The translations under genes were made by a program, and so were the position numbers. Positions 21,018-50,200 of a stretch of 64,000 nt of DNA are shown one piece after another. The stretch comes from an uncultured Candidatus Saccharibacteria bacterium (GTDB lineage Bacteria > Patescibacteriota > Doudnabacteria > UBA920). The first letter of the stretch is position 1. Each line of letters begins with the position of its first letter. Below the pieces are notes generated by a model. It did not search any database. It was given only the letters and a program-made list of their open reading frames with translations, and had not been told where the DNA came from. The stretch is taken from NCBI GenBank assembly GCA_964532425.1, contig CAZHIA010000006.1, positions 65,343 to 129,342 of the forward strand, given 5' to 3'.

Positions 21018-21893
21018 TTACTTGAGGAACTTTTGTTTGTTCAGCAGATGCTCTTCATATGTTTTGCTATATACCGGTTCTCCGCTCGGTTGTTTGTGAA
21101 GGAAAAAATAGTAATCGGTAGATGTCGGGTACAGTACGGCCATCAGTGACGATAGTGAGGGGTTGCAGATTGGCCCCGGTGGCAAGCCGGCGTGTCGGTA
21201 GGTGTTATAGGGGGTATCGATCTGCGTATCAGCTTCGCTGACTGCCGGCGTATTCTTTTTGGTAACGTAATTGATGGTTGCATCGCTGGCCAGCGGCATA
21301 CCGGCCTTCAGGCGGTTGTAAAAGATACCGGCGATGATCTTGCGCTCGTTATCCAGAGCTGTGCGTTGCTCGGCGGAAACTGCATTACGCCCGGTTTCCC
21401 GCTCTACGATAGAAGCCAATATGACTGCCTGGTGAACCGACATGCCGAGCTCCTGGGTCCTGCTACGCATTTCCGGTGTGAATTTTCGTTCGAAGTTCGC
21501 GAGAGCTTTTGCGATAAGCGTTTCAGCGCTGGCGGTGGGACTCGACGCGTTAATCGGTACAAAATATGTATCCGGAAACAAATACCCTTCTAGGCTGGAA
21601 CTGGCTGGTTTGTGGGCGATATCGGGAAAATCGTTCAGCGGAAAAGCCTGGGCAATCCGATAAAAATCAGCAGGGGTGGTAAGATGTTCCGGCTCTCGTT
21701 TATCATGGTGGTCAAGATCTCGAGCTATATCGTCCATGGTCCACCCTTCGATGACAGTGACTTTCGCCTGAGGTGCCTGGACAGTTGTTGCCGGTGTGCG
21801 CTGGTGGCGGCTTTTGACATAGGAAATACCGGCTGCCGCTGCAATAGCCGTGATGATGACCGCGATAATGATGGATAAAATAAAGCGCTTCAT
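21018..21893 (-). CDS. mltG: endolytic murein transglycosylase MltG (YceG-like)
   Basis: N-terminal anchor. Motifs LEGYLFPDTY, ASIVERE and GLPPGPI. Confidence 0.85.
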   Translation of the reverse strand: MKRFILSIIIAVIITAIAAAAGISYVKSRHQRTPATTVQAPQAKVTVIEGWTMDDIARDLDHHDKREPEHLTTPADFYRIAQAFPLNDFPDIAHKPASSSLEGYLFPDTYFVPINASSPTASAETLIAKALANFERKFTPEMRSRTQELGMSVHQAVILASIVERETGRNAVSAEQRTALDNERKIIAGIFYNRLKAGMPLASDATINYVTKKNTPAVSEADTQIDTPYNTYRHAGLPPGPICNPSLSSLMAVLYPTSTDYYFFLHKQPSGEPVYSKTYEEHLLNKQKFLK

Positions 21894-22025
21894 AGTAAAT
21901 ACAATATCCGTGAAACGGCTGAGTAGTATTGCCAGTTGCTAAATTAGCAGCCGATAGATAGTAAACATCCAATAAGAGCATGCTTATTGGATGTGATAGT
22001 TCAATGTATTTAAAACGTATTCTCT

Positions 22026-22466
22026 CTACTCCCCTATAACCTTCAGATACAATTCGCGGCTTCTGCCGCCGTCAAATTCCACAAAAAAGATGCTTTGCTT
22101 GCCACCGAGGAGTAATGCGCCGTGCTCGATGATCAGGGTTTCCGAAGAACCGGCCAGGAAAGCTTTGACATGGGCGTTGCCGTTTGAACGCTCGTTCGGT
22201 GCGACATTCTGCCTGACTTCGAACAGGTCGTGACTGTAACTCATATCCATAGGAACCAGGCGGTAAACCGCTTTCATAATATCCTGCATGAGCAGCGGTT
22301 CATTGTGGTTAATTCGAACCGTCGCGGTGGTGTGCGGGCAGAACAGGACTGCCATCCCCTGCATGATGTTAGTATCGGCCACTGCTGCCTTGATTTTATC
22401 AGTGATATCGATCAGCTCAAACTGTTTCTGTGAATTGAGGTAAATTTTTTTGAAGATGTTTTTCAT
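22026..22466 (-). CDS. YjbQ-family protein (UPF0047)
   Basis: FCPHTTA...RIN core typical of YjbQ. Confidence 0.65.
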   Translation of the reverse strand: MKNIFKKIYLNSQKQFELIDITDKIKAAVADTNIMQGMAVLFCPHTTATVRINHNEPLLMQDIMKAVYRLVPMDMSYSHDLFEVRQNVAPNERSNGNAHVKAFLAGSSETLIIEHGALLLGGKQSIFFVEFDGGRSRELYLKVIGE

Positions 22467-22510
22467 TTGTGTTTACGATTTACGCTAATAGTATACCACA
22501 AAATCGGCAG

Positions 22511-24184
22511 TTATGCCTGTTTGGCAAAGTCAAAGGAACTGGCTTTGAGGTTGCTGTTGAGCGGTAAAGTGAAGATAAAATGCGAGCCTTTGCCGATTCC
22601 GCCGCTTTCCACCCATATCTTGCCCTGATGCTGGTTGATGATAACTTTTGCTACATAAAGCCCGAGTCCCAGTCCGGCGCTTTGTTGTATGGACTCTTTG
22701 CCGCGGGTATATTTCTCAAAAATCGTGCTAAGGTCCTCGGTTGGGATGCCTTTGCCCGAATCTTCAACTTCGAAGCGGACCTCTTCGGTATTGTAGGTCA
22801 GGCGAATCTGGATGCTGCCGCTCTTGGTATACTTGATGGCGTTATCGACAAGATTGTTAATGACCTGCCGCAGCTTCTCCCGGTCTGCAGTCACGAGCGG
22901 GATATGGTCTGATTGGGCTTTTAAGGTCATCTTTAAGTGCTTTTCTTCCGCCAGAGGGAGTAGCTGCTCGTAGGTGATGTGTGTCAGTTCGAAGATATCA
23001 ACTTTTTCGAAGAGAAATTCCATCTTGCCGCGTTCGATGCGGGAGACATTCAAGATGTCCTCAATCAGCGAAATGAGAAGGTTGTTGGCGCGGTCGGCCT
23101 TGGAAAGTGCCTCGGTAACGTCCTTAGGGAGCTTGCCGAAGTCTCCGGCAATGACCCCGCTCAAATACCATTTGACCGTGGCTGGCGGCGTGCGCAGCTG
23201 GTGGCTGGCGATGGAAATAAATTCAGCTCGCGCTTTGTCGAGGGCTTTAAGCTGCTGGTTGGCGTCAGCCAGTTCCGTGGTCAGTTTTTCCAGCTCTTCG
23301 CGCTGCTGGACCTCCTGGATGACTGAGCGAATCAGGATTATCCCAAGGCTGAGAAGCAGCAGGAACAGGAACGAACGGAAAATGAGGATGGTCAGCGAAT
23401 TGGAGATAATCACTTCCACGAACACGGCACTGGTCAGCACGAAGACCGCGATCTCTGTGGACAGGATTTTGGTCTGCAGGAGTTTGTGGCGAATAATGGC
23501 ATAGCTCATACAGATGATGAACGGGAAGAAAAATAGTCCGCCAAGGGAAATGAAGCTGGAATTGTTCGAGATGGTCGGCAGTACGAAGTTGAAGTTAATG
23601 ACCAGGCTGAACGTGATCAGCGTGCCGATCAGGATAATAATCAATGGTTTTTTTGCCTTATCATGGGTGGTGGCAATTTTTTTTGCCAGGAGGAAGATGC
23701 CGGAAAGAACCAATCCGGAGGCAACCATCCCAAAGACCCCAATAGCCGGCCCATTCTGGATGCTGATCACTCTGCCATACTTATCGGTTTCTGCGACTCT
23801 TTCAAAGACCCACGGAGTCAGGGTAGCCAGGGCGCCAAACGCTGCTATGGAATTGACTGCATACTTGAACCAGTCGGGAAAATGCTTCTCCTCGTCAGGG
23901 AACACGTAAAATAAGCTGAATAACAGGTATGCTTGAACGATAGCAAGAAAGATTTCGAGGCGAAAGAACCACAAGGCGATTGTCGGATCGGAAATTTGGT
24001 AGGCAGAATAGTTAACGGCTCCCCAAACGCTCGTAATAAGGGAGAAAGCTAAAAAGAGTTTGCTGCTCAGGTTATTCTTATTATTCAAGTAGACGGTAAA
24101 CGCCAAAATGACGGTAGCGGCCATAGCCACACCGAGGGAAAGCAGGTCGACGTTTTGCAGAAGGGCAAGGCGGATGATGCTCAT
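22511..24184 (-). CDS. sensor histidine kinase with multi-TM N-terminal sensor region
   Basis: About 8 TM helices. H-box SHQLRTP. HATPase motifs DSGKGIP and GLGLGLY. Its start overlaps the stop of the upstream nitroreductase-like gene. Confidence 0.85.
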   Translation of the reverse strand: MSIIRLALLQNVDLLSLGVAMAATVILAFTVYLNNKNNLSSKLFLAFSLITSVWGAVNYSAYQISDPTIALWFFRLEIFLAIVQAYLLFSLFYVFPDEEKHFPDWFKYAVNSIAAFGALATLTPWVFERVAETDKYGRVISIQNGPAIGVFGMVASGLVLSGIFLLAKKIATTHDKAKKPLIIILIGTLITFSLVINFNFVLPTISNNSSFISLGGLFFFPFIICMSYAIIRHKLLQTKILSTEIAVFVLTSAVFVEVIISNSLTILIFRSFLFLLLLSLGIILIRSVIQEVQQREELEKLTTELADANQQLKALDKARAEFISIASHQLRTPPATVKWYLSGVIAGDFGKLPKDVTEALSKADRANNLLISLIEDILNVSRIERGKMEFLFEKVDIFELTHITYEQLLPLAEEKHLKMTLKAQSDHIPLVTADREKLRQVINNLVDNAIKYTKSGSIQIRLTYNTEEVRFEVEDSGKGIPTEDLSTIFEKYTRGKESIQQSAGLGLGLYVAKVIINQHQGKIWVESGGIGKGSHFIFTLPLNSNLKASSFDFAKQA

Positions 24185-25263
24185 GGGGTGTTTTTGTATT
24201 CTACCTGAATAGGTAGTTTCGATGAATAATCCGTAGCCGGTTGAGCCTGGCCGATGCGCAGGATCATAGCCAGAGTTTGTCCCTGGGTCGAAAGAATTTC
24301 TTCAATTTCCCGATAAGATTCTTTGACCAGTGCAATATGGGATGGGTGCAGGGAGCCTGTCTGGTTAGCGTTGATGCGGTGCATAAGGAACAGTACTCCC
24401 GTAACTGGATGGGCGGACAAGCCGAGAGCTGTAGCTTCCAGCCAGATCCGCTGCGTTACCCGCCCAGCTTCCAGGAATCCTGCCGCATCGCTTTTGTTAT
24501 TCGGAACGCTTACTGCAACCAGTGCGCCCGAAGCCGCGTAAAGTTTGGCATTCTCATTGGCAATAATGCGGGAGAATCCCAAGCGATTGAGGAATTCTGC
24601 CCGGGCGCTGACGGAGTATTGTTTGAAGATGAAACGCGCAATAGCGTTCATTTCCAAAGTAGTGACATAGAGTCCAGTTCTGACTTGGCGTTCCTGCTGC
24701 TGGGTCCAGACTACATGATGGAAAAATATTTGTCTGAGGGTTGGTGTTTCCAGGACCGTGCGTTCATTGGCGCTGAGAGCCTTACCGAGGCGTTTGAGCT
24801 GTTCCTTGTCCTCACAAATAGTAATTTTGCACAGGCTATCGCCTCCCCTACTGCCGCAAGCGAGTATGCGGTGTTTAGCCGCATCCTGCAGTTTTTCGGC
24901 AAGGTAATGCCGGCGGTTGGTTTGCCGCTTTGCTATATAAGATGCGAGCGGATCCTGCGGAGTATTCGATTCAATCAAAGTAATTTCGGCGGTCAGATCG
25001 GGATTGCGATCATTCGGTAACAGCTTTACCTCGGCAGACAGCCCGTGCATGCTCGCGGCGATCATAATGTTCTCGATGAGCGCTCCATGTGCCAGGTAAG
25101 ACCCCTTCTGTTCATAGTTGTAGAATGGAATGTCGCGCTCGGGAAGGTTAAAGGTCCGTATGACCGATCCACTGACTTCAAAACGCCACGGCTGCGAATT
25201 ATCCCCGGACGGGGCATGCGCGGCAAGTTTTAAAATTTCACTAATGGTCTGTTCGGTGATCAT
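24181..25263 (-). CDS. nitroreductase-fold (SagB/McbC-type) FMN-dependent dehydrogenase-like protein
   Basis: N-terminal SGDNSQPWRF motif of the nitroreductase superfamily. About 360 aa, consistent with a double nitroreductase-like fold. Confidence 0.6.
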   Translation of the reverse strand: MITEQTISEILKLAAHAPSGDNSQPWRFEVSGSVIRTFNLPERDIPFYNYEQKGSYLAHGALIENIMIAASMHGLSAEVKLLPNDRNPDLTAEITLIESNTPQDPLASYIAKRQTNRRHYLAEKLQDAAKHRILACGSRGGDSLCKITICEDKEQLKRLGKALSANERTVLETPTLRQIFFHHVVWTQQQERQVRTGLYVTTLEMNAIARFIFKQYSVSARAEFLNRLGFSRIIANENAKLYAASGALVAVSVPNNKSDAAGFLEAGRVTQRIWLEATALGLSAHPVTGVLFLMHRINANQTGSLHPSHIALVKESYREIEEILSTQGQTLAMILRIGQAQPATDYSSKLPIQVEYKNTP

Positions 25264-26405
25264 AAACCGATCGTGCTTAAGAATGCTCGGGTGTGCTCTT
25301 GGCGTTCCTGTTCTTTTTCCGCAGTTGCATATCCGGTCTCAAAAATAGCATCCAGGTTGACCTGGTAACGGCCGGAAGCAGGATCCGTGTCTTTCGTCAC
25401 AATTTTGCGTACCAGGTACGGGATAACGCTGCCACACAGATTTGCTGCCGTGCCGAGCTGTGGCCAGGAGTACAGGGTGCGACCGACTTCGAGTACCGAA
25501 TCCTGCATCCGCGAGGTGGCTAATTCGGCTCCGGCGATGCGCGCAGCGGCTTTGGGGAGGTCCTGCGGAGAGAGTTGTTTGAAATGTTCCGCGGTCATAT
25601 CCCCCACCAGCCCGTTCAAAATCGGTGCATCAGGATTTCGGTCATAGCGCTCAACATCTACGAAAATATTATCGCCGTTATCAGTGCCCATGAGGACCGG
25701 AATGTGTCTGGCCTTTGCCGCCTCGCGGACTTTCAGTTTGAAGTAGGGCTGGTCCATTTCTTCGATCAGGATGTCCGCGCCGTCCAAAAATTCTCCCAGA
25801 TTGCCGTCGTTGAGCCCTTCGGGGTATATTTTAATTTCCGCATACGGGTTGATCTCGTATATCTGCCGGGCTACCAGCAGAGTTTTATTCAGCCCGACGC
25901 TGGTTATGCCGATTCTCAGCCGGTTGAGGTTGGATCCTGAGACTTCGTCGGGGTCGGCCAGACGCAAGTGCTTCGGACCGCCGTTCATGGCCAAGACCGC
26001 AGCCGCATGGCTTCCTACGCTTAAGCCGGCAATAGCCGCGGTGGCCTGGTAGTAAGTTTCTTGTTCATCTTTGGTGATGAGGTTGCGGTTTCTTCCCGTG
26101 CGCATTTCCAGAAATTCATGTTCCGGCAGTACGTGCACGAGTTTGGAGAGCCACGGGTAATAAAACCAGTTGCCGCAATCCTTGAGTGGTCGTCCTTGGC
26201 AGTACAGGGTAACAAAACCGGCGAGTTCCGCCTGATGGTCAGGCTGGAATCGGAATTGTGGGTTACGTAGCAGGAAGAGGTCTTCCAACAACGTTTCGTA
26301 CCGGTCGATAACCTCGACCTCGGATGATTCCTGCAGCTGCTTGAATAAGCGGTTATTTTCCGATGTGACCAAAAGGGGTTGGTGTTCCTGAGAGGGAGTC
26401 TTCAT
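25260..26405 (-). CDS. ThiF/MoeB/E1-like adenylyltransferase-family protein with N-terminal extension
   Basis: Rossmann motif GLSVGSHAA plus a downstream acidic residue pattern typical of the E1-like fold. 4-nt overlaps with both neighbours. Confidence 0.6.
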   Translation of the reverse strand: MKTPSQEHQPLLVTSENNRLFKQLQESSEVEVIDRYETLLEDLFLLRNPQFRFQPDHQAELAGFVTLYCQGRPLKDCGNWFYYPWLSKLVHVLPEHEFLEMRTGRNRNLITKDEQETYYQATAAIAGLSVGSHAAAVLAMNGGPKHLRLADPDEVSGSNLNRLRIGITSVGLNKTLLVARQIYEINPYAEIKIYPEGLNDGNLGEFLDGADILIEEMDQPYFKLKVREAAKARHIPVLMGTDNGDNIFVDVERYDRNPDAPILNGLVGDMTAEHFKQLSPQDLPKAAARIAGAELATSRMQDSVLEVGRTLYSWPQLGTAANLCGSVIPYLVRKIVTKDTDPASGRYQVNLDAIFETGYATAEKEQERQEHTRAFLSTIGL

Positions 26406-27925
26406 CGTTTTGCAAGTGAATTTTTAATAGCCCATCGCTGCTTTGTCCCTGGCGCAAAATAAGTCTTGTCTTCGTATGGCCAGAAGACGACGAGTGGATC
26501 GGTCTTGCCTCCGTATTCCTCCCGCGTTTTGCGGTATTCGGAATTTTCTTTGGTCAGGGTTCGAATAATGGCTTCCCGGCAGGCTCGGTTCAAACTGTCG
26601 GTGGACTGTATGCCGCGCTTGAGTTCAATATTGACGACAAAACGCTGGTCGGCATTTTTATTTTCACGAACCTGCATGCTGAACTTGCCTGTGATGGCTT
26701 TTTGCAAAGTTTTTTCAGTCAGGGCCTTGCGCACGGTTTGCGGATAGATTTGAAAAGCAAAAAAACTGACCGAAAAGTCGCTTCGTTCATGCACGTAGAC
26801 AAATGGCAGTTGCCACAGGGTGTCGCCCAGTTGCTTGTTGCCGGCTTCCATTATGAGATTCCTATCATGCAGCTGCCAGAGCGACTGCATCTGCTGAAAC
26901 GGGATAACCCCTCCCCTGTCCTTGAGGTCATAACGGACCAGAGGCAGTCCGGCACGGCTGGTGCAGGCAAGCTGGTTATTTACACTTTCGAAGAAAAATT
27001 GTTCCGGCAAATACTGGGTAAGGGTAGGCAGTTTGAATTTTTCGTTAAATAGGCTTTGGTACAACTTTTGATTCTTCACGGCTTCGCGGCGGATATAGAT
27101 GGAAACTGGCGTTTCATATGACATAGTTCCTAAATCTACAGTGCCATAGTGGTTTAAAGTGCTACGATATGGGTCTTTGCATCCGCAGGTCTTGAGAACG
27201 AAATCACGAAATTGTTCGCTGAAGCCTTCAGCAGAGAAGATGAAGCCAAGAGAAGTATCGGACCACTTGATGCCTTCGGCCAGCCCGTCTTCCAGAACAT
27301 CTTTCAAAAACGGAGCATACGCGCCGATGATGACCTGGTCGAATTTGTCCTTAAGGTTTTTGAAGGAGTTCAGAATCTCGCGCTTGTTAATCCCTGGCGT
27401 GATGATGCTCAGCGGATATTGCCCGCGCTGGGCAACTAATTGCACCGCTTCGTATGTGAAGACTCCCCCGATCCAAACTCCCATAGGGAAGGCATTTATA
27501 TACAGCGTGCTTTTGGAATGAATGGAAAAATTGGTCCGCAGGTATAACTCAGCCGTGAGGGCATATTGCAGGTCCTGTTCTCTGGTCCTTGGGAAGTAAA
27601 ACGGATTGCCGGTGGAACCGGAGGTGGCAGAAATGGTCCAAGCCTGGCGCTTGAACGCGCCGTCCCAGCAAAGGGCTTCTAAAGGATAACGCCGCAGATA
27701 ATCATCCTTGCTGGTCAGGGGTAGCTGCTGAAAATCCGAAAAAGTCTGGATCTTTTCCGGCTTGACCTTATTGATTTTTAGAAAATCCTTATAGGCAGGC
27801 ACCCGCGCGGCCATTTCCTGGAACAACTCTAATGCTTCCTGTTGCCCGCGTTGTTCCCAGTAGCGTGCAGGACGGGTTTTGAGTTGTTTTTCCAATGATA
27901 GGACAACGGCAGGTTTTATAGCCAT
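26402..27925 (-). CDS. adenylate-forming enzyme (PaaK/F390-synthetase-like ANL superfamily)
   Basis: Motif TSATSGSTGNPFYF corresponds to the SSGTTGKP P-loop of phenylacetate-CoA ligase-like enzymes. 507 aa. Confidence 0.55.
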   Translation of the reverse strand: MAIKPAVVLSLEKQLKTRPARYWEQRGQQEALELFQEMAARVPAYKDFLKINKVKPEKIQTFSDFQQLPLTSKDDYLRRYPLEALCWDGAFKRQAWTISATSGSTGNPFYFPRTREQDLQYALTAELYLRTNFSIHSKSTLYINAFPMGVWIGGVFTYEAVQLVAQRGQYPLSIITPGINKREILNSFKNLKDKFDQVIIGAYAPFLKDVLEDGLAEGIKWSDTSLGFIFSAEGFSEQFRDFVLKTCGCKDPYRSTLNHYGTVDLGTMSYETPVSIYIRREAVKNQKLYQSLFNEKFKLPTLTQYLPEQFFFESVNNQLACTSRAGLPLVRYDLKDRGGVIPFQQMQSLWQLHDRNLIMEAGNKQLGDTLWQLPFVYVHERSDFSVSFFAFQIYPQTVRKALTEKTLQKAITGKFSMQVRENKNADQRFVVNIELKRGIQSTDSLNRACREAIIRTLTKENSEYRKTREEYGGKTDPLVVFWPYEDKTYFAPGTKQRWAIKNSLAKR

Positions 27926-27932
27926 GGGCAGG

Positions 27933-28976
27933 TTAGTGTTTGTTAAATATTCGTTCAGCCATGGAGTCCGCTACGGCATTGGTTGAATTGCCGGTTTGTT
28001 TACTGGCTGTAAAGATTTTGCGCAACATGGTAGGGATATTCTCCAGCCGTTTGAGCAGGCGTTGTTCGTCCTGGTTGTGGTTTTCATACTCATCGACAAC
28101 CGAGATAAGCCCCCCGCCGTTGAGGACATAGTCAGGCGCGTACAGGATGCCGGAATTATGCAGCATGTCCCCTACCGAGGCTTCGGTCAGTTGTCCGTTG
28201 GCTCCGCCAGCAACGATCGCTGCTTTGATTTTGCCGATGTTTCCCTTGTTGAGAACCGGGCCCATGGCGCAGGGGCTGACAATATCGGTGCGCACATAGA
28301 GAATCTTATCCGGCGACATCAGCTCGATTTTGGGATATTTTTTCTTTGCTGCAGCCGCAGCCAGTGGGTTAATGTCTGCCGCATAAATGCGCTTGGCGTG
28401 CTTGTACACGAGGGACAGCAGGCTGCTGCCAATTTTGCCAAGGCCCTGAATGGCGATGCTTCTGCTGTTTAAAGATGAACTTCCAAAGACTTCCTGGAGA
28501 CATACTTCAATACCTTTGTGGATGCCGATGGCCGTATATAATACCGGATCAACTTCAACGCCAACCACGAAGGGGGTGGCTTTTTTCATGATTTTGACAT
28601 CGTGTGCGCTCACGCCAAGGTCTGCTCCGGTAACGAATTTGCCGCCGAGCATGCTGACGCGGTTGGCGTATGCCCCGAGCAATTGGCCTCTGCTTTTGAG
28701 CGCTTTGGGATTTGCTATAATGACCCCCTTGGCTCCCCCGTACTTAACCCCGGCCATGGCGGCTTTGTAGGACATGAGTCGTGAAAGCCGCAGGGCATCC
28801 CGCAGCGCATCCTGGTCATTGCCGTATACGGCAATGCGGGTTGCGCCAAAACTGGGAAACCCGTTATCGCCGCGATGCAGGGCAATATAAGCGGAGAGGT
28901 GCGATTTAGGATCTTCCACCCGCGCTACGAACCGGTGGTCATCAAACTCCCGAACCTGGGTATATGCTTCAGACAT
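27933..28976 (-). CDS. Glu/Leu/Phe/Val-type amino-acid dehydrogenase
   Basis: Catalytic-lysine motif KYGGAKGVI. NAD(P) Rossmann motif GLGKIGSSL. Confidence 0.8.
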   Translation of the reverse strand: MSEAYTQVREFDDHRFVARVEDPKSHLSAYIALHRGDNGFPSFGATRIAVYGNDQDALRDALRLSRLMSYKAAMAGVKYGGAKGVIIANPKALKSRGQLLGAYANRVSMLGGKFVTGADLGVSAHDVKIMKKATPFVVGVEVDPVLYTAIGIHKGIEVCLQEVFGSSSLNSRSIAIQGLGKIGSSLLSLVYKHAKRIYAADINPLAAAAAKKKYPKIELMSPDKILYVRTDIVSPCAMGPVLNKGNIGKIKAAIVAGGANGQLTEASVGDMLHNSGILYAPDYVLNGGGLISVVDEYENHNQDEQRLLKRLENIPTMLRKIFTASKQTGNSTNAVADSMAERIFNKH

Positions 28977-29085
28977 GGTGTTAACTGGTGCTTTTTGTAT
29001 CTTAGGCGAACTTTTTTCTAAAGATAGTATATCACTTTTTTCTTAAATATGCTATAATTAGAATGAATTTAAGCAATTTTGTCAC

Positions 29086-29466
29086 ATGAAAAAAATACTC
29101 GTTATCGAAGATGACATTGCCATGCGGGAGATTGTCGTGCGCAAACTCTCCACAAACGGCTACGAAGTCAAACAGGCCGAGGACGGACAGAAGGCTCTGG
29201 AGCTGTTCGGTGCCGAGCATCCGGATTTGGTTCTGCTCGATCTGATGCTCCCCGTGGTTGACGGTTTCCATATTTTGGAAGCTATCCGCCATTACGATGA
29301 CAAGAAAATCGCCGATACGCCGGTCATAGTATTGAGTAATCTGTGGAGCAATCAGGATATCTTGCGGGCGCAGTCTTTAAATGTGCAAGGGTACATGGTC
29401 AAAGCCTATCATACCCCCGAGGAGATATTGGCCAAGGTTAACGAAGTGCTTGGTATCGGAAAATAA
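29086..29466 (+). CDS. stand-alone response-regulator receiver (CheY-like)
   Basis: Acid pocket DD, phospho-acceptor Asp in LLDLMLP, conserved T/S and K positions. No output domain. Confidence 0.85.
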   Translation: MKKILVIEDDIAMREIVVRKLSTNGYEVKQAEDGQKALELFGAEHPDLVLLDLMLPVVDGFHILEAIRHYDDKKIADTPVIVLSNLWSNQDILRAQSLNVQGYMVKAYHTPEEILAKVNEVLGIGK

Positions 29467-29479
29467 TTTTTAGGAAACA

Positions 29480-29523
29480 AAATCCGTCCCGCCCTTTTCG
29501 AAAAGGGCGGGACGGATTTTTAT
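29480..29523. terminator. bidirectional terminator, perfect 40-bp palindrome
   Basis: AAATCCGTCCCGCCCTTTTCGAAAAGGGCGGGACGGATTT. Confidence 0.8.
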
Positions 29524-29539
29524 TTGGCAGAGTATGAAA

Positions 29540-29812
29540 TTACAGGATGGAATCCTTTGCCTGCTTGGCAACGCGGAACTTCAGGACGGTCTTGGCCGGG
29601 ATCTGAATGGTCTCGCCAGTAGCCGGGTTGCGGCCCTGTCTGGCATCGCGATGCTTCTTCTGGAGTTTCCCGAGGCCCGGGATGGTGAATTCACCGGTCT
29701 TTTTGGTTTCTGCAACCGCGAGGTTCACGAGTGCTTCCATGAATTCGCCGGCTTCTTTGCGAGTCTTACCCAGCTTATCAGCCAGGGCCTGCAAGGTTTC
29801 TGACTTGGTCAT
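29540..29812 (-). CDS. hupB: DNA-binding protein HU
   Basis: 90 aa. GRNPATGE..IP arm motif. Confidence 0.9.
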   Translation of the reverse strand: MTKSETLQALADKLGKTRKEAGEFMEALVNLAVAETKKTGEFTIPGLGKLQKKHRDARQGRNPATGETIQIPAKTVLKFRVAKQAKDSIL

Positions 29813-40152: not shown

Positions 40153-41784
40153 TTATGTCATATGCGCTTGTGCCAGCGCTACCGCGATCTTTGGTAGCTC
40201 GGTTTCGCCCGGGTATATAAGGAATCGGGGCTGCCAGACAGGGTGAAATTTGGCTTTGAATGCCGCCAGACTCTGGTAATGATAGAGTTGGTTAAAATTT
40301 TTGTATAAGAAATCAACTGCTTTTTGAGCAAGCTGCGAGTCGGTGTGCGGGCTCTCGGTTTCCCTGGTGGCCAGCCCCAGACTCACTTGCCGGCAATCCC
40401 GGTTTTTAAAATATTCAATAGATTCGCAAAACGCGGCCTCGACAGTTCCGCTTGGTGCTAGTGGTGATTTGAGCATAAGGTCGAGCGCCATGGCTGTACC
40501 AAGATCGTATGGATAGTAGGAAAATGCCGCTACAATTTTTCCGTCAGTGCTGCCTGCCAGGAGCCAGCCGTCATCAAGCGGTGGGAACGGATAATAATGA
40601 GTCGAGAAGCCCATAGAACGGTTGTTGTGAGCGGTAAGCCAGTTGTGGTGCAGCGTCTCGATCTGGCTCAGCACCAGCCATGGTACTTCTGATAGTCGGT
40701 GCCATTGCCAAAGCAGGCCGCTGCGTCGGGCTGCTGCTGCGGCGTTCCTGACATTTTTCATAGCAGGGGTATTGAGATTAAATTCCGCGGTCTGCACGGC
40801 TGCGTCATCCCCGACCTTGAGGGCTTTCATGCCGAGCGATTTGTAATGTCCGAGATTGTGTTCGGCTACCAAATAAAAGACCACGCTTAATCCCCGCTGC
40901 TGCATGGCGGCATAAAATTCTTCTATAGCTCCCAGCCTCGCACCCTCGGGTCCTAAGGGGTCCCCCAGAGCTACCGCAGTGCCTTGGCGGATTTTGTAGG
41001 CTACTACCGATTCACGGTTTTGGGTAAAAAAATATCTTTTGTCGGGCATGAGCGATAAATAGGCGGTGGACAGAGAACCGTGGCGTCTTGCAAGTTCGAG
41101 TACTGCCGACTGTTCTGCTTCAGTTGGTGTGGATGGAAGCAGGTCCGGACCGAACAGAATGGCCACAATCGAAAGCAGGACTAGAATGCTAATTGCGGTG
41201 ATCGAATCTTGAAACCATAATGCCTGATGAGTGAGCGGGACGAGGGTATTGCTGCCGAGACCTGTGATGGTGTATATATAATCGGAAACGATGGTATGCC
41301 ATGAGATTGGCCGGGTAAATTGTCCTTGCAGGAGAAAATAGCCGGCGGTCGAATATACTCCTAAGAGCAAAAACAGTACCGCTCCCCTGCGAGCGCGCTG
41401 GACGAGGGTTAACCGGGCGCTGGCAATGGTGAATTCAAATCTGAAGGCAACCAAAAGAATGAGGGGGATGGCGGTTAACGATGCATCCTCAACATCAAAA
41501 CCTTTTATGATATGGAAGACCAGGGAGGCGGCAAGCAGGCTGACGGTGATGAACCAAGCCCTGCGCTTTTTATTCCAAATTCCGCGCGCGAGGAACAGCA
41601 AAAAGAAACCCGAGAGCACTGATAAGGTTTTTGATGCATGGCGTACAGCCAACGGAAACCCTTCTTCAAGCACTATGATTCGAGCCGGGATAACCGGATG
41701 GAAGGCGGAGAAAATATCCAGCAAACCGGCAGCAAATACAATGAGGCCGATAATGACGCTCGGACTGAACCTGATTTTTTTCAT
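40153..41784 (-). CDS. MprF-like aminoacyl-phosphatidylglycerol synthase family protein (multi-TM + DUF2156-like domain)
   Basis: About 7 N-terminal TM helices and a 300-aa C-terminal soluble domain. Family assignment by overall resemblance only. Confidence 0.45.
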   Translation of the reverse strand: MKKIRFSPSVIIGLIVFAAGLLDIFSAFHPVIPARIIVLEEGFPLAVRHASKTLSVLSGFFLLFLARGIWNKKRRAWFITVSLLAASLVFHIIKGFDVEDASLTAIPLILLVAFRFEFTIASARLTLVQRARRGAVLFLLLGVYSTAGYFLLQGQFTRPISWHTIVSDYIYTITGLGSNTLVPLTHQALWFQDSITAISILVLLSIVAILFGPDLLPSTPTEAEQSAVLELARRHGSLSTAYLSLMPDKRYFFTQNRESVVAYKIRQGTAVALGDPLGPEGARLGAIEEFYAAMQQRGLSVVFYLVAEHNLGHYKSLGMKALKVGDDAAVQTAEFNLNTPAMKNVRNAAAAARRSGLLWQWHRLSEVPWLVLSQIETLHHNWLTAHNNRSMGFSTHYYPFPPLDDGWLLAGSTDGKIVAAFSYYPYDLGTAMALDLMLKSPLAPSGTVEAAFCESIEYFKNRDCRQVSLGLATRETESPHTDSQLAQKAVDFLYKNFNQLYHYQSLAAFKAKFHPVWQPRFLIYPGETELPKIAVALAQAHMT

Positions 41785-43625: not shown

Positions 43626-45305
43626 TCACTTGGCGACTTCCACCGGGAGTTCAATATAAAACACCGTCCCTTTATTTTCCCGCGACTTGAATGAAATTTT
43701 TCCTTTGCAGTAATCAAGAAATGATTTGACAAGGTAGAGCCCGAGACCCGAGCCTTCAGTATCCAGTTTGGCCGCGTTGTCGGCACGGAACAGTTTCGTA
43801 AAGACCTTGTTTTGCTGGTGTCTGGGAATACCATATCCCGTGTCTGCAACGGTTATGCGCAAAACAGGTTTCTTCCGCGCCTGTTTTGCTATGGAAATTT
43901 TCGTATTGATTGTTCCGCGGGACGGGGTATACTTTACCGCATTCGTGACGAGATTTTGCAAAACCAGGCGGATAACCTTTCGGTCCGACAGGATCGGTTT
44001 GAGATTTTTTGAAAAATCCATCTGGACACGCAGTTTCTTTTCCTTGATGATGGGGCTAATCTCTTTTACGATGTCCTCCAACAGCTCTTTGATACTTATG
44101 ACGGACAACTTGATAGTAAATGTTCCCAACTCTATGCGGGAGACATTTAAAAAGTCATAGACGAGTTCCACCATTTTTTGGTTGGCTTTATACACCGCTT
44201 GCAAATAGCGGCGTTGGTCCTTGGTTAGCCGCCCGATCTCCCCGCTGAGCAGGGCTTCGGCATACCAGTTGATCGCTGAGAGCGGGGTGCGCAGCTGATG
44301 GGAGACCAGGGAGATGAGTTCAGATTTGGTCTTGTCCATTTCCCGTTCCTTGGTTACGTCCCGGAAGACTTGGATGAATCCAATGATTTGGCCGTGGTAC
44401 ATGACCGGAGAAGCAGTGAGGACGACCGGGATCCGTGAGCCGTTTTTTTTCTGGTAAAAGACGTTCTTGGACTTGGTTTGCAGGAAGTGGTGTAGGGCCC
44501 GGTAAATGGGACGCTTGGCGTGTTCTATGGGTTGATGCTGCTCGTTCAGCATGGGTTCCGTGTCGAGCAGGAATTTGCCAATCAGCTCATCCTGGCGGCA
44601 TCCGAAGATCCGTTCGGCTTCCCGGTTGACGAGAATTATTTTCCCTTCCTTATCGGTCAGGAGAATGCCTTCTCCGATTGAATTGAGCAAAATTTCGTCC
44701 TTCACTTTATCTTGGCTGAGCAGGCTGCGATTTTGTTCGAGTTCAGTAGTGCGCTCCTTGAATTTGACCTTCAGTTGTTGATTTGCTTCTTGCAGGTTCC
44801 GGTTCAGGCGATTAATGGTGATTGCTTGTGCTGCGCCGTTTCCGATGAAAGTGCACAAGTCCTGTTCCTCGCTGGAAAAGTCATGATGGGAATTATAACA
44901 AATGACCAGCGTGCCATACGTCTTGTCGCGGTATGCAACGGGTATGACCGCTACGCTTTGCATATAGGCACGGGCATCGCCGCGTAAAAAGTCCGCTTGG
45001 GCGGCATCAGTGACCAGGAGCGGGGTTTTATTCTCAAAAACCCTGGCCATCACCCCGTGCTTGCGGGGAGCGGTCGGGGTATACGGGGTATTCTCGGTCT
45101 TATAGAGCCGCTTAAATTCTTCGTCTTTGGGCTCCTTGAACCAAGAGAATCCATAATTTGCACCCAAGACAGCCACGGCAGTTTTGACGAATTTGCTGGC
45201 AATAACCTGCTCGTCAGCCTCATTCACGCATTCGAGAATAACCTCATTGAGCAGAGTCAGTTTGTTGGAAATATGATTCATAAAAATTTGGGTCGCCGGT
45301 GGCAT
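43626..45305 (-). CDS. cytoplasmic sensor histidine kinase (GAF-PAS-HisKA-HATPase)
   Basis: H-box SHQLRTPL. DTGYGIP and GSGLGLYLV. The ORF opens at 45401, but the start was moved to avoid overlapping the upstream gene. Confidence 0.8.
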   Translation of the reverse strand: MPPATQIFMNHISNKLTLLNEVILECVNEADEQVIASKFVKTAVAVLGANYGFSWFKEPKDEEFKRLYKTENTPYTPTAPRKHGVMARVFENKTPLLVTDAAQADFLRGDARAYMQSVAVIPVAYRDKTYGTLVICYNSHHDFSSEEQDLCTFIGNGAAQAITINRLNRNLQEANQQLKVKFKERTTELEQNRSLLSQDKVKDEILLNSIGEGILLTDKEGKIILVNREAERIFGCRQDELIGKFLLDTEPMLNEQHQPIEHAKRPIYRALHHFLQTKSKNVFYQKKNGSRIPVVLTASPVMYHGQIIGFIQVFRDVTKEREMDKTKSELISLVSHQLRTPLSAINWYAEALLSGEIGRLTKDQRRYLQAVYKANQKMVELVYDFLNVSRIELGTFTIKLSVISIKELLEDIVKEISPIIKEKKLRVQMDFSKNLKPILSDRKVIRLVLQNLVTNAVKYTPSRGTINTKISIAKQARKKPVLRITVADTGYGIPRHQQNKVFTKLFRADNAAKLDTEGSGLGLYLVKSFLDYCKGKISFKSRENKGTVFYIELPVEVAK

Positions 45306-45328
45306 CCCGGCGACCGTGTTCTGGTACC

Positions 45329-46102
45329 TTACTGTTTTTCGAACGGTATGATGACATACCGGTCGATGTCGAACATGGTCTCCTTGCGCAGCTCGTCGCA
45401 TGCGCGCATGGTATGCCCGAACGTTTCTGGGTAAAATTGGAAGTTGCGAAACGTTGAATCTGGGCCAGGTTTCCTGCTGGGGTTGAGGTCTTTAGTCGAT
45501 TCCGCAAGCAGGAAATGTCCTCCGCGTTTAAGGAGCGGGACGACTTGTTGCCGGAGGCAAAATGCAAGCTCTTCGTCGTTTCTGATGTGCGGGCCGAGGC
45601 GTTCCCAGGTAATAAGGTCAAAGCTTTCTTCTTCAAACCTGCTGCATAGTTCGTGCGCGCCTCCGACTCCGAAGTTGCTGACATAGTCGCCGAGTCCTTT
45701 ACTCATGAGGTAGGAGTGTAGGAAATCGACGATTGCGGGGCAGATGTCCTGTCCGAAACACTCGCCGCCGGTGCTGAGGGCTAGGCCCAGATATTCGACA
45801 ACACGGCGGATACCGTTCGCTACTATCAGAATCCTGACCTTGTCTTTACCGGCAAGGCAGGCAGCCGCTACTTTGAATATTTCGTCTGAAAGTTCCTGCT
45901 CCTGCTGTTCGCAGTATTGCCGGATCTCCGGACGATGGATATCCTCTGCCAACCAGTGTGCAGGACCCCCCATAAACCAGATCAGGCGGTTAAAGCGGTA
46001 CTGCCAACGTTCGACGACTTCTTCCTGGTCGATTTTGACATACGGGGTAACCGTGAGCTCGTTTGCGGGGGCCTGGATGAACTGCAACCAGTGCTTGCCC
46101 AT
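45329..46102 (-). CDS. hypothetical protein (possible class I methyltransferase fold)
   Basis: Weak GxGxG-like and acidic-loop patterns. Low certainty. Confidence 0.35.
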   Translation of the reverse strand: MGKHWLQFIQAPANELTVTPYVKIDQEEVVERWQYRFNRLIWFMGGPAHWLAEDIHRPEIRQYCEQQEQELSDEIFKVAAACLAGKDKVRILIVANGIRRVVEYLGLALSTGGECFGQDICPAIVDFLHSYLMSKGLGDYVSNFGVGGAHELCSRFEEESFDLITWERLGPHIRNDEELAFCLRQQVVPLLKRGGHFLLAESTKDLNPSRKPGPDSTFRNFQFYPETFGHTMRACDELRKETMFDIDRYVIIPFEKQ

Positions 46103-47216: not shown

Positions 47217-50200
47217 ATGGGTCCACTGGAATCACGCATGCTATCACTCCAGGAGTGGCTGGCTCAGAGGAAAATGCGGGGTATAATTGTTACCCTGATC
47301 GTTTTGGTTGTGCTCGAAATTGTGACGCATCGCACCCGGTTTAATGTCGTCAATCCGGGTTTGTTTTTACTTATTGCTGTTGTCTATGCAGCTTTTATCG
47401 ATGGCATGATGGCCGGGCTGGTAAGTGGCACGCTCGGCTTTTTGTATTCTCTATATTTTTTCTCTCGTGATGGCCGCCTATTCACCTACACACCCGATGA
47501 CCTAACCCGGGTTATTGCCCTGTTCGTCTCCACTTATGCGATTGTGTATATGACCGGCTGGCTCAAACAGCAGAACGATCTGAAGACCCGGCAGCAGGAG
47601 CAGCAGCGCCTTCAGGAGTTGCAGGAAGACAAGATATGTGTTTTTGCTGATGCTTTCCCTAATATTATTTGGACGATGGCCAGCGATGGTACGTACGAAT
47701 ATTTTAATAATACCTGGTATGAATTTTCAGGATTAACGAGGGTGCAGACGTTCGACCATACGATCACCCGATCCCTCATACACCCAGAAGATATACAGCG
47801 AGTGCTGGAGCGCTGGTGCCAGTCTCGGGAGAGTGGTCAATCACTGGAGATTGAATATCGTCTCAAGTCAAAAGCTGGGGAGTTTCGCTGGTTTATGGCC
47901 AGGATCGTTCCGGTCAAGAACGCCCAGGGCGCGGTTATTAAATGGTTCGGTTCCGCGACTGACATTCACAAGCAGCGCAAGGTTGAAGCAGAATTGGAAA
48001 ATTCCAAGCGGCAGCTGGAGGCGGTGTTAGCGAATGTGGCAGACGGCCTCGTGGTGCGTAATTTCCAGGGCCGGATCCTTTTTACCAACGGAGCGGCATT
48101 ACGCATTTTTGGGGTCAGTTCGGTGGAAGAACTGTCCGAATTCCTCTCATCTGATGTTTCGCATGGTCTTAATTTTCGCGACATTGATAACAGGCCGGTA
48201 CATATGCAAAAGCTTTTTATGCCTACGCCTGGCAAGAACGGTACTGGGACTGATCCGCAGATATACAGTCTTGTTGGCAATGCAATTACCGCAAAGCGAT
48301 GGGTCTCCATTTCCGCCACTTCCATTGTGAATTCCCCCGCTGCCCCCGATCTGTACGTGTCTGTTATCCGGGACATTACGAATGAGCGTAAGGCCATCAT
48401 TGAAACGGAACGATTAGTCGCCCAGCAGGAGTTTCTCGCCCGCGCCGGCGAGCTACTCACTTCTTCTTTGGACCATGAAACAACACTCAAAAGCCTCACC
48501 AGGCTCATTGTGCCAAGGCTTGCCGAATGGACAGTCGTGCATTTGGTCCAACCTGACGGAGCAGTGGTTGAGGTGGCGGCGGCCCACGTAGACCAGGAGA
48601 AGGAAAGGAGGCTCGTGAAAACTCTCGGTACTCGGAAAAACGAGCAGGGTGAACTAGCAACGCCGAGTTGGATGCTCAAAGTTGTGCAGACCGGCAAGCC
48701 CGAATTTCACCCTATCGTGAACGAACAAACTATATCGGCTATTACGCTCGGCACCGAGCACACACGGATGATCCGGGAAACTGGAATCCGTTCGATCATG
48801 GTGGTTCCGCTAAAGAATTTAGACCAAGTGATTGGCACAATCTCTTTTGCCTACACCGATACGGACAATCATTTTTCGGAGAGCGACTTACAAATGGCAG
48901 AAGAGCTGGCACGGCGCGCCTCGATAGCCATTCAGAATTCCAAACTGTATCACCAGGCACGGGAGATTGCGTCCCGCGAACATGAGCACGCTGCTCTTAC
49001 CGAGACTTTACTCGGCAATGCCCCGGTCGGTTTTGGGTTTGTCTCTTTGGATTACAAGTTTTTGCAGGTCAACAACGCTCTCGCTGCCATGAACAGCGTC
49101 AGTCCTCGGGATTTGCTTGACCGGCGCTTGAGCGAAGTCCTACCCGACCTGGCTGAAGTAGTCGAGCCTCAGTATGACCACGTAGTAAAACATGGGGAAC
49201 CGGTGGTTGATTATGAGATTAGCGGGTATACGCCGGACAATCCGGAGCGGCTGCGACACTGGTTCTACAATTTTTTTCCAGTGCGCAATACCGACAGTAA
49301 ATTGAGCGGAATCGGCATTATTGTTGCGGAGGTGACTGACCGCAAGGAAGCCGAACGGGAGATTCATTACCGCGCATACCATGATATCCTGACTGGTTTG
49401 CCGAACCGGAAATATTTTGACGAACGCCTGGCATACGTGCTCCATCGGTCCAAGCGCGACCATCACAAATTTGCCGTATTGTTCATCGACATGGACCGAT
49501 TGAAGAACATTAACGATTCGCTCGGGCATGACATCGGCGATACGGTCATTCGCGAACTTGCGGAACGCCTCAAAAAAACGTTGCGTGCTGGGGATGTAGT
49601 GGCGCGCTGGGGAGGCGATGAATTCGTGATCTTGCTGCCCGAGCTTTCGGTTATAGCAGACGCGGTCAAAGTTGCAGAAAAGATCTTGAAAACCGTGGAG
49701 CCGTCCCTCCGGATTGGCGTCCATACGCTGCACATGACGGTGAGTATTGGCATTGCAGTCTTCCCGAATGATGGAGAGGATGTTCAGACGCTGCAGAAAA
49801 ATGCGGATATCGCCTTGTACCGCGCCAAAGAGGCTGGCAAGAACCGCTACGAGCTGTATAACCAGCAAATGAATGTTAAAGCTTCCGAGCGCCTGGCTCT
49901 GGAAAACGATTTGCGGCAGGCTCTCGCCAAGTGCCAGATGGACCTCTACTATCAGCCAATCCAAGATTTAAAAACCGGACGTATCGTATCGGTCGAAACG
50001 CTGCTCCGTTGGCGGCATCCGCGTTTTGGCCTCTTGTCCCCGCTCCGATTTTTACCCATCGCGGAAGAAACCGGTATCATCTCCCAGCTCGGTTCATGGG
50101 TTATTGACCAGGCCGTCTCCCACATGGCTGAGCTGAACCTTACCAGCGGGCCTATGCGATTTTCGATCAATATTTCAGCGCGTCAATTTTCCGAGGGCGG

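Follow-up and report, generated by a model that had tools for sequence, protein, structure and literature searches.

The window analysed here, a stretch of 64,000 nt from contig CAZHIA010000006.1 of an uncultured Candidatus Saccharibacteria bacterium, contains five consecutive minus-strand genes that encode an amino-acid dehydrogenase, an adenylate-forming ligase, a ThiF-like protein, a nitroreductase-fold flavoprotein and a sensor histidine kinase, with a receiver-only response regulator encoded divergently. Comparison of these proteins with characterized families suggests that the genes may form a conserved operon of Patescibacteria, the bacteria of the candidate phyla radiation (CPR), for an oxazolone-type heterocycle derived from an N-acyl amino acid, coupled to its own two-component sensor, a reading to which we assign a probability of roughly 0.45, a little short of even odds. 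Members of the Rv1355c family, including TrzS, and the related OxzB and TyzB/TyzC cyclize and desaturate N-acyl amino acids (PMC12856293; PMC10404671; 10.1101/2020.06.11.147165). TrzS converts N-acyl-tryptophan to N-acyl tryptazolone through an ATP-dependent cyclization that is followed by an O2-dependent desaturation (PMC12856293); OxzB is known from Pseudoalteromonas rubra (10.1101/2020.06.11.147165; PMC12596934), TyzB/TyzC is the split pair of Mycobacterium tuberculosis (PMC10404671), and ThiF/nitroreductase genes are also carried by clusters for N-acyl-dehydrotyrosines (PMC12479983).

The ThiF–flavoprotein pair and its operon

The pair at the centre of the cassette comprises a ThiF-like adenylating cyclase (381 aa; 25260-26405, minus strand) and a nitroreductase-fold flavin-dependent oxidase (FDO) of the FDO/Acg subgroup (360 aa; 24181-25263, minus strand), which correspond to the N-terminal and C-terminal halves, respectively, of an Rv1355c/TrzS-type oxazolone synthetase. 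Against the NCBIfam model NF005901 ('Rv1355c family protein') the former scores 319.6 bits (E = 4e-95) over positions 22-350 of 722 and the latter 174.5 bits (E = 3e-51) over model positions 373-715, and the sum of the two scores, 494 bits, is above the cut-off for the fused protein, 476. The next-best ThiF model for the window ThiF reaches 68 bits, and the named ThiF/MoeB/TcdA models at most 67 bits, while the flavoprotein also matches the Acg-family FMN oxidoreductase model (147.8 bits) and the PDB entry of Acg (2ymv). By sequence, the two proteins are the halves of an Rv1355c family protein, that is, a putative split oxazolone synthetase. A first-pass annotation, made from the letters of the window and its open reading frames (ORFs), had labelled the flavoprotein 'SagB-type' and likened the pair to the McbB/McbC and SagB enzymes of thiazole/oxazole peptide maturation. 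The label was not confirmed: a search of NCBIfam at E ≤ 0.01 gave no match to the SagB-type model TIGR03605, and the flavoprotein falls into the Acg/FDO subgroup; the peptide analogy likewise gives way to the small-molecule oxazolones to which both NF005901 scores point.

The window ThiF retains the GxSVG and DxD...NLNR motifs, Lys174 and Asp218. The last of these, located in the sequence 'EEMDQ', is shared by 90% or more of 77 cassette ThiFs; the adenylation-motif aspartate does not vary when aligned with an Rv1355c-family protein from Mycolicibacterium, the homologue used for this comparison, in which it is Asp202. Mutation of the adenylation-motif aspartate of TrzS (Asp217) abolishes cyclization. 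No conserved Cys pairs were found in the cassette ThiFs, which argues against sulfur transfer of the MoeB/ThiF type, and the motif APSxxNxQPW is conserved in the flavoprotein. When four cassette variants besides that of the window were tested, the stand-alone ThiFs, including one from a cassette devoid of a flavoprotein, had the Rv1355c model as their best match (213-313 bits), and a ThiF–flavoprotein fusion scored 396 bits against it; the best match of the flavoproteins of a second type (type B) was the Acg family model, at 190-200 bits. The nearest non-CPR relatives of the ThiF, found in plasmid or chromid records and 34-40% identical, are mycobacterial and rhodococcal Rv1355c-family proteins and ThiFs of Streptomyces that stand alone. 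Among these, the gene on a plasmid of Streptomyces sp. NBC_01471 (locus L088, 6899-8697), whose product is 39% identical to the window ThiF, shares an overlap with a GNAT gene; a MerR regulator precedes the two and no nitroreductase is found there, and this ThiF/GNAT couple may be an oxazolone-type pair lacking the desaturation step.

The ThiF and flavoprotein genes are embedded in a compact operon. Upstream of them lie the genes of the ELFV-family dehydrogenase, of the Leu/Phe/Trp dehydrogenase type (347 aa; 27933-28976, minus strand; Pfam PF02812 and PF00208), and of the ligase, a PaaK-family member of the ANL superfamily for which we propose an ATP-dependent amide-forming step (507 aa; 26402-27925, minus strand); downstream follows the kinase gene (557 aa; 22511-24184, minus strand), the product of which carries HisKA_7TM, HisKA and HATPase_c domains (Pfam). 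The response regulator, a CheY-like protein of 126 aa (29086-29466, plus strand), consists of a receiver domain (Pfam Response_reg, residues 4-118) and has no output domain. The four enzyme classes, the co-transcribed multi-transmembrane kinase and the divergent receiver-only regulator named in the first-pass annotation were all recovered from the ORFs and from Pfam and NCBIfam searches. The five minus-strand genes are translationally coupled: the ligase/ThiF, ThiF/flavoprotein and flavoprotein/kinase junctions are 4-nt ATGA overlaps, as had been noted from the start and stop positions, and the spacer between dehydrogenase and ligase measures 7 nt, one less than the 8 nt given at first.

The 109-bp divergent intergenic region (28977-29085) presumably contains the promoters of both transcription units, and a TATAAT sequence occurs at 29052-29057. 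Scans of positions 21800-29700 revealed no excess of promoter-like (8, compared with 7.9 in shuffled controls) or terminator-like (5, compared with 9.5) sequences. All of the ORFs of at least 20 aa that touch 28977-29085 overlap a flanking gene, among them a 23-aa ORF on the strand opposite to the operon, which overlaps the start of the dehydrogenase gene, and a 23-aa minus-strand ORF that lies almost entirely within the response-regulator gene; the region offers no room for a precursor gene, and the search for small ORFs that had been advised for it yielded no credible candidate. On the same strand, 44 nt downstream of the kinase gene, lies a YjbQ-family gene (22026-22466, minus strand). This gene was found only in the window and in its Logan twin (L001), and it probably falls outside the cassette, since none of 80 related loci has it.

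Distribution and variants among the Patescibacteria

In a scan comprising one genome per species, relatives of the ligase were detected in 403 genomes, and the cassette counts given here and below refer to the best 80 of these 403, taken as non-redundant loci, all ORFs of which were scored with the window proteins and with iterated profiles. Judging from record titles or context, all of the best 80 loci belong to the Patescibacteria, the named groups being Saccharibacteria, Paceibacterota, Gottesman-, Woyke-, Roizman-, Doudna-, Magasanik-, Adler-, Kaiser-, Lipton- and Nomurabacteria. Several records (L008, L016, L020, L024, L047 and others) with a CPR-type cassette, one of them on a 938-kb 'chromosome', are titled 'uncultured Gammaproteobacteria bacterium' and one 'Polyangiaceae'; the taxonomic titles of these records look wrong, and the gammaproteobacterial ones are apparently mislabels. 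In the supplementary gene tables for Southlakia epibionticum, a cultivated Saccharibacterium, no ThiF or phenylacetate-ligase annotation was found (PMC10633639).

The ThiF gene is present in the ligase-containing run of assigned genes in 78 of the 80 loci, the flavoprotein gene in 63 and a 7TM kinase gene, downstream on the same strand, in 69, the loci without a kinase being mostly cut by a contig end or bearing an insertion. A receiver-only ORF flanks the cassette in 43 loci, and an alpha/beta hydrolase occurs in 20. The dehydrogenase is found in 40 loci and a class I/II aminotransferase in 31, and the two never occur together (0/80). The aminotransferases belong to two unrelated subfamilies, one AspAT-like (in Saccharimonadia) and the other HisC-like (in one Paceibacterota locus). 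The occupation of one slot by three non-orthologous enzymes, the dehydrogenase and the two kinds of aminotransferase, points to the activity that they have in common, namely the interconversion of amino acids and 2-oxo acids.

The order of the genes is permuted, with arrangements such as ThiF–dehydrogenase–ligase–flavoprotein–kinase, dehydrogenase–ThiF–flavoprotein–ligase–kinase and flavoprotein–dehydrogenase–ligase–ThiF–hydrolase–kinase. In-frame fusions join dehydrogenase with ligase (L086), ligase with ThiF (L017), ThiF with flavoprotein (eight loci), ThiF with hydrolase and flavoprotein with hydrolase, the last being a fusion of nitroreductase-fold and alpha/beta hydrolase domains present in L002 (10656-12560, 634 aa), L034, L056, L070, L074 and L082. 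In other loci a separate hydrolase gene stands between the ThiF/flavoprotein genes and the kinase gene. Recurrence in 80 independently assembled loci, with permuted order and fusions, is far beyond chance, and conservation in other genomes, on which the first-pass annotation had made its interpretation depend, is thereby borne out. Among the recurrent neighbours of the 80 loci there was no N-acyltransferase, YcaO, ThiS/MoaD-like carrier, rhodanese or 2-oxoacid oxidoreductase/decarboxylase; the absence of YcaO and of a precursor peptide from the window operon had been correctly read at the outset. A variant of Saccharimonadia without the flavoprotein (L023, L044, L046 and L059-L064) is made up of aminotransferase, ligase, ThiF and a long kinase, and the cassettes of Saccharimonadia are regularly flanked by putative MurD- and MurI-like genes, an assignment made by reading of the sequences only.

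The ligase, the dehydrogenase and related systems

The ligase is annotated in its sources as a phenylacetate-CoA ligase family protein, and in Pfam and NCBIfam it gives only weak PaaK-like matches, over its N-terminus, and a weak GH3_C match. Its family comprises 2,116 clusters at E ≤ 1e-3, the top 120 of which are all 53-61% identical to it, and the ANL motifs TSGSTGxP, YGT and RYxLxD and the C-terminal Lys are invariant. An AlphaFold model (pLDDT 85.7) has PaaK-family proteins as its best structural matches: 4r1l, PaaK-like, scores 25.6, followed by 6hdw, a 2-hydroxyisobutyryl-CoA ligase (19.6), 9s3l, ClxA (19.6), 6siw, titled in the PDB only 'PaaK family AMP-ligase' and which we take to be NatL2 (19.5), 3hgu, EhpF (16.8), and various canonical ANL enzymes (12-15). 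According to this model, the protein has the PaaK-family fold within the ANL superfamily. Two narrower assignments were discarded. As PaaK proper it scores 41.3 bits on TIGR02155, the cut-off of which is 646.3, with only the N-terminal 210 residues aligning; as a GH3 amido synthetase it has a GH3_C match below the cut-off and no GH3 protein among its top 60 structural neighbours.

The PaaK-family enzymes NatL2/BomJ and ClxA couple an acyl-AMP directly to a small-molecule nucleophile without CoA, and each is then followed by a separate ring-closing enzyme (PMC7204872; PMC12519233). This CoA-free chemistry sets a precedent for our proposal that the cassette ligase may produce the N-acyl amino acid on which ThiF would act. 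NatL2/BomJ (nataxazole, A33853) and ClxA (closoxazole) share only 14-19% identity with the cassette ligase; moreover, NatL2 and ClxA join aminohydroxybenzoates, and an amidohydrolase closes the benzoxazole, whereas the presumed ring-closing partner in the cassette is the ThiF-like enzyme. Homologues of the ligase with 33% identity to the window protein, from a family of more than 5,000 clusters, occur in actinomycetes (L087, Nonomuraea; L091, Kibdelosporangium; L089, Lentzea; L090, Planomonospora), where they stand alone in a variable context without ThiF or FDO, and for this reason the cassette as such looks CPR-specific. Two of these four genes lie directly beside a histidine kinase and a LuxR-type regulator, and the other two beside an FAD-dependent monooxygenase and a regulator.

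The dehydrogenase (PF02812, 54.6 bits; PF00208, 59.4 bits) aligns over its full length with both the leucine dehydrogenase 6acf and the Nostoc tryptophan dehydrogenase 5b37 of the PDB, at 226 bits each, and its 'GGAKG' sequence aligns with the matching segment of the two, which presumably holds the catalytic Lys. In two signatures of the substrate pocket, 'GATR' and 'TGAD', it resembles tryptophan dehydrogenase ('GATR' and 'TGQD') and not leucine dehydrogenase ('GGTR' and 'TAED'), and 'GATR' and 'TG.D' are conserved in 39 cassette dehydrogenases. In engineered phenylalanine and leucine dehydrogenases, Gly at that position goes with bulkier side chains, and we take the Gly signature as no more than a lead towards a substrate with a bulky side chain. 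Assignment as the tryptophan dehydrogenase ScyB was rejected at 267.4 bits, the cut-off being 600. The protein shares with the Leu/Phe/Trp dehydrogenases, ScyB of scytonemin biosynthesis included, the ELFV fold and length class, and with NpTrpDH the GATR and TGxD signatures; unlike ScyB, it is not accompanied by ScyA or ScyC partners.

The closest known parallels to the cassette are OxzAB, TyzACB and TrzAS (Rv1356c/Rv1355c of M. tuberculosis), in which a ThiF-like ATP-dependent cyclase and a nitroreductase-fold FDO are likewise adjacent or fused, and the CPR loci display both the split, TyzB/TyzC-like form and the fused, TrzS/OxzB-like form. The known systems, which are found in Proteobacteria, Actinomycetota and Planctomycetota, differ from the patescibacterial cassette in possessing an acyl-CoA-dependent N-acyl amino acid synthase (OxzA/TyzA/TrzA), the slot of which is occupied in the cassette by the PaaK-family ligase. 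The cassette in addition contains a dehydrogenase or aminotransferase, a 7TM kinase and a receiver, and in some variants an alpha/beta hydrolase is added or the oxidase is missing. A review of ThiF enzymes gives OxzB as the only one known to act on a small molecule, and the neighbourhood analyses in the Tyz and Trz papers yield FDO and acyltransferase neighbours; neither these sources nor the OxzAB preprint mention such an arrangement or a CPR member. Full-text literature searches (oxazolone with CPR terms; ThiF with nitroreductase, ligase and kinase; HisKA_7TM) returned no description of it. The ThiF/FDO core is known, having been described in 2021-2025, and for the ligase, the dehydrogenase or aminotransferase and the kinase wiring no description came up in the literature searched. 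The initial statement that this is not a described pathway consequently stands for these additions and not for the core.

Kinase coupling, proposed pathway and alternatives

In the kinase, residues 1-285 contain six 19-residue windows that exceed the hydropathy threshold, and additional, weaker hydrophobic stretches discerned by eye bring the number to about 8-9. The intervening stretches are mostly short, the longest (approximately residues 97-147) being partly hydrophobic, and a coiled linker leads directly into HisKA, with no PAS, HAMP or extracytoplasmic domain. A comparison of 68 cassette kinases shows conservation of several polar and aromatic positions of the membrane region. We know of no reported ligand for HisKA_7TM. 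It is a recognized sensor domain (PMC5847659), and quorum-sensing kinases typically lack PAS, HAMP and GAF domains (PMC8895600).

For an analysis of co-variation, the kinase alignment was split at positions anchored on window residues and evaluated with a permutation test. Sensor-region and flavoprotein distances, taken pairwise, are correlated (Spearman 0.65, a value reached by none of 500 permutations), compared with 0.21 for kinase core and flavoprotein and 0.31 for sensor and core of the same kinase. Flavoproteins of type A (Rv1355c-like) are found with a short kinase (about 540-575 aa) in 18 of 19 loci and with the dehydrogenase in 21 of 23, and a type-B or absent flavoprotein goes with a long kinase (about 730 aa) in 35 of 46. 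All 20 hydrolases accompany a type-B or absent flavoprotein and none a type-A enzyme. The window represents the variant with type-A flavoprotein, short kinase and dehydrogenase. Derived from alignments, the co-variation fits a matching of receptor and ligand and is suggestive only.

An analogy may also be drawn with LuxM/LuxN, CqsA/CqsS and PhcB/PhcS/PhcR, in which the genes of synthase and receptor are adjacent. As in those systems, genes putatively devoted to a small hydrophobic molecule lie beside that of a polytopic kinase devoid of PAS, HAMP and extracytoplasmic domains. The synthases are unrelated in sequence to LuxM, CqsA and PhcB, and the cassette further departs from these pairs in its HisKA_7TM sensor, its non-hybrid kinase and its receiver-only regulator, sensing of the product being here a prediction.

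A pathway can be proposed by following the gene order and the chain of fusions. It builds on family assignments, motif conservation, cassette linkage, fusions and the replacement of dehydrogenase by aminotransferase, all of which were observed; every chemical step, the substrates and the sensing of the product by the kinase are inferred from them. The dehydrogenase, or the aminotransferase in other lineages, would interconvert a bulky-side-chain amino acid and the corresponding 2-oxo acid, providing a dedicated building block. The PaaK-family ligase would then adenylate a carboxylic acid and couple it, without CoA, directly to the amino group of an amino acid, affording an N-acyl (possibly N-2-oxoacyl) amino acid and taking the place of the acyl-CoA N-acyltransferase of the known pathways; the absence of an N-acyltransferase from the recurrent neighbours suggests that it is the ligase that makes the amide with ATP. 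Abstracts on CPR bacteria describe a very limited biosynthetic capacity, under which an acyl-CoA acyltransferase might be left without a substrate, so that an ATP-dependent ligase working with amino-acid units would suit such organisms. The ThiF-like enzyme would adenylate the free carboxylate, allowing the amide oxygen to close a 5(4H)-oxazolone ring, and the flavin oxidase would introduce a Cα–Cβ double bond; in some lineages the hydrolase may open or transfer the reactive azlactone. The hydrophobic product, or the N-acyl-dehydroamino acid released by its hydrolysis, would finally be perceived inside the membrane by the 7TM kinase encoded in the same transcript, and this kinase would phosphorylate the receiver-only regulator. 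The suggestion in the first-pass annotation that a molecule derived from an amino or keto acid is activated and oxidatively tailored, and that the kinase may sense it as a signal, is compatible with this comparative evidence.

A number of points weigh against the proposed oxazolone pathway. The cassette is known from genes alone, with product, substrate and ligand all inferred; the ligase may make a CoA thioester as PaaK does, and the dehydrogenase or aminotransferase step could run in either direction. The aminotransferase of Saccharimonadia, which is often divergent, could reflect the synteny of that lineage. About ten Saccharimonadia loci lack the flavoprotein, and desaturation is accordingly not universal. 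Of the TrzS FDO residues Arg540 and Gln651, the former may have its counterpart in Arg168 of the window flavoprotein, a placement that was obtained by offset from the Mycolicibacterium homologue and is uncertain, and this position is not conserved in all of the 63 cassette flavoproteins. The characterized FDOs need O2, and many CPR bacteria live in anoxic habitats. As for the sensor, its co-variation with the flavoprotein is confounded by common descent of the whole module and by the two-type, bimodal structure of the data, and the adjacency of the kinase gene is equally expected if the kinase merely regulates the operon in response to an unrelated cue.

In a possible, if in our view unlikely, variant of the scheme, the same pathway makes an effector (such as an antimicrobial compound, a lipid-like molecule that manipulates the host or a protectant against stress) that is not the kinase ligand, kinase and receiver switching the operon on another cue such as contact with a host membrane or envelope stress. 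The evidence on the enzymes supports it equally, kinase genes often adjoin the operons that they regulate, and there is precedent for such roles: the N-acyl dehydrotyrosines of related ThiF/nitroreductase clusters are reported to be antimicrobial, and oxazolone production has been linked to stress (PMC12856293; PMC12479983). On the other hand, a regulator without a DNA-binding output domain makes direct transcriptional control not obvious, the kinase gene follows the enzyme genes in the shared transcript instead of preceding them, and it is the sensor domain, not the kinase core, that co-varies with the type of tailoring enzyme. A different chemistry is improbable, namely one in which the ligase joins two amino-acid-derived units into a dipeptide or 2-oxoacyl-amino acid and another internal nucleophile attacks the carboxylate activated by ThiF to close a diketopiperazine- or pyrazinone-like ring, subsequently desaturated by the nitroreductase-fold oxidase in the manner of cyclic dipeptide oxidases. 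It would agree with the amino acid/2-oxo acid building block that the dehydrogenase or aminotransferase implies and, if the abstracts on CPR biosynthetic capacity are followed, with the unlikelihood of a fatty acyl donor, and nitroreductase-fold enzymes do desaturate diketopiperazines in albonoursin biosynthesis (as cited in 10.1101/2020.06.11.147165). However, the ThiF clearly belongs to the Rv1355c family, the sole known chemistry of which is oxazolone closure by the amide oxygen, and no cyclodipeptide synthase or AlbA/B-type model was matched in Pfam or NCBIfam.

Two further explanations do away with the oxazolone altogether. The phenylacetate-CoA ligase annotation and the PaaK protein at the head of the structural matches would agree with a housekeeping or catabolic route from an amino acid through its 2-oxo acid to an aryl or branched acid and, by the ligase, its CoA ester, with ThiF as a sulfur-carrier activator and an unrelated nitroreductase. 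We hold this to be very improbable: on the PaaK equivalog model the ligase reaches 41, far below the cut-off of 646, none of the 2-oxoacid oxidoreductases or decarboxylases, ThiS/MoaD-like carriers and rhodaneses that such a route would call for is a recurrent neighbour in the 80 loci, conserved Cys pairs are missing from the ThiF, which also scores low on the named ThiF/MoeB/TcdA models, and fusions tie the ThiF to both ligase and flavoprotein. Least credible of all is maturation of a ribosomal peptide by an E1-like protein and an McbC/SagB-type dehydrogenase. The pairing of an E1-like protein with a nitroreductase-fold FMN dehydrogenase is indeed common to the cassette, McbBCD and SagBCD, but YcaO is missing from the window operon and from the recurrent neighbours, the flavoprotein has no SagB-type domain (no TIGR03605 match), genes that overlap or lie 7 nt apart and a 109-bp region without a credible small ORF provide no precursor peptide, and both proteins belong to a family with oxazolone chemistry on small molecules.

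Elsewhere in the window, signalling genes are numerous for a contig the cassette relatives of which are all from CPR bacteria: a GAF-PAS histidine kinase is encoded at 43626-45401 (minus strand) and a 1161-aa DUF4118-PAS-GAF-PAS-GGDEF-EAL protein at 47217-50702 (plus strand). The latter gene lies about 20 kb from the cassette, unlike the arrangement in M. tuberculosis, where trzAS adjoins genes for cyclic di-GMP turnover (PMC12856293). The gene at 40153-41784 (minus strand) encodes 543 aa, including the C-terminal domain of MprF-type lysyl-phosphatidylglycerol synthases (PF09924, E = 4e-61). Finally, an 887-aa ORF at 57420-60083 (plus strand) is matched by the models for the shoulder domain of the Major Vault Protein (PF11978, E = 1e-19) and for a vault repeat (PF17795), and a protein of this kind is unusual on a bacterial contig; its region has a GC content of 0.59, compared with about 0.49 elsewhere, and a strong AT skew, and lies just past a low-GC stretch with tRNA-Thr and tRNA-Trp genes.

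The papers on bacterial oxazolones leave their physiological role open, a signalling role having been suggested with no receptor known (PMC12856293; 10.1101/2020.06.11.147165). With the proposed oxazolone pathway as a basis, a self-contained communication circuit of the CPR may be tentatively envisaged, doubtful as it still is, in which an oxazolone-type autoinducer would be made from amino-acid units without acyl-CoA, the 7TM kinase would be its dedicated receptor and the CheY-like protein would direct a non-transcriptional output. The maintenance of a six-gene unit in hundreds of species from the major patescibacterial classes (ligase relatives in 403 genomes) despite their tiny genomes and scant biosynthetic capacity argues that it is central to the patescibacterial lifestyle. 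Even if the sensing part does not hold up, the prediction would stand that the cassette leads to N-acyl amino acids and oxazolones independently of acyl-CoA, by way of a large and uncharacterized ligase family of more than 2,000 protein clusters. If the kinase does sense the product, oxazolones would gain a receptor, the first known for natural compounds of this class, and a function, and the CPR would gain a first candidate system of chemical communication, its signal and receptor being the first such pair to be described for them, and the hypothesis would be testable with six defined genes.

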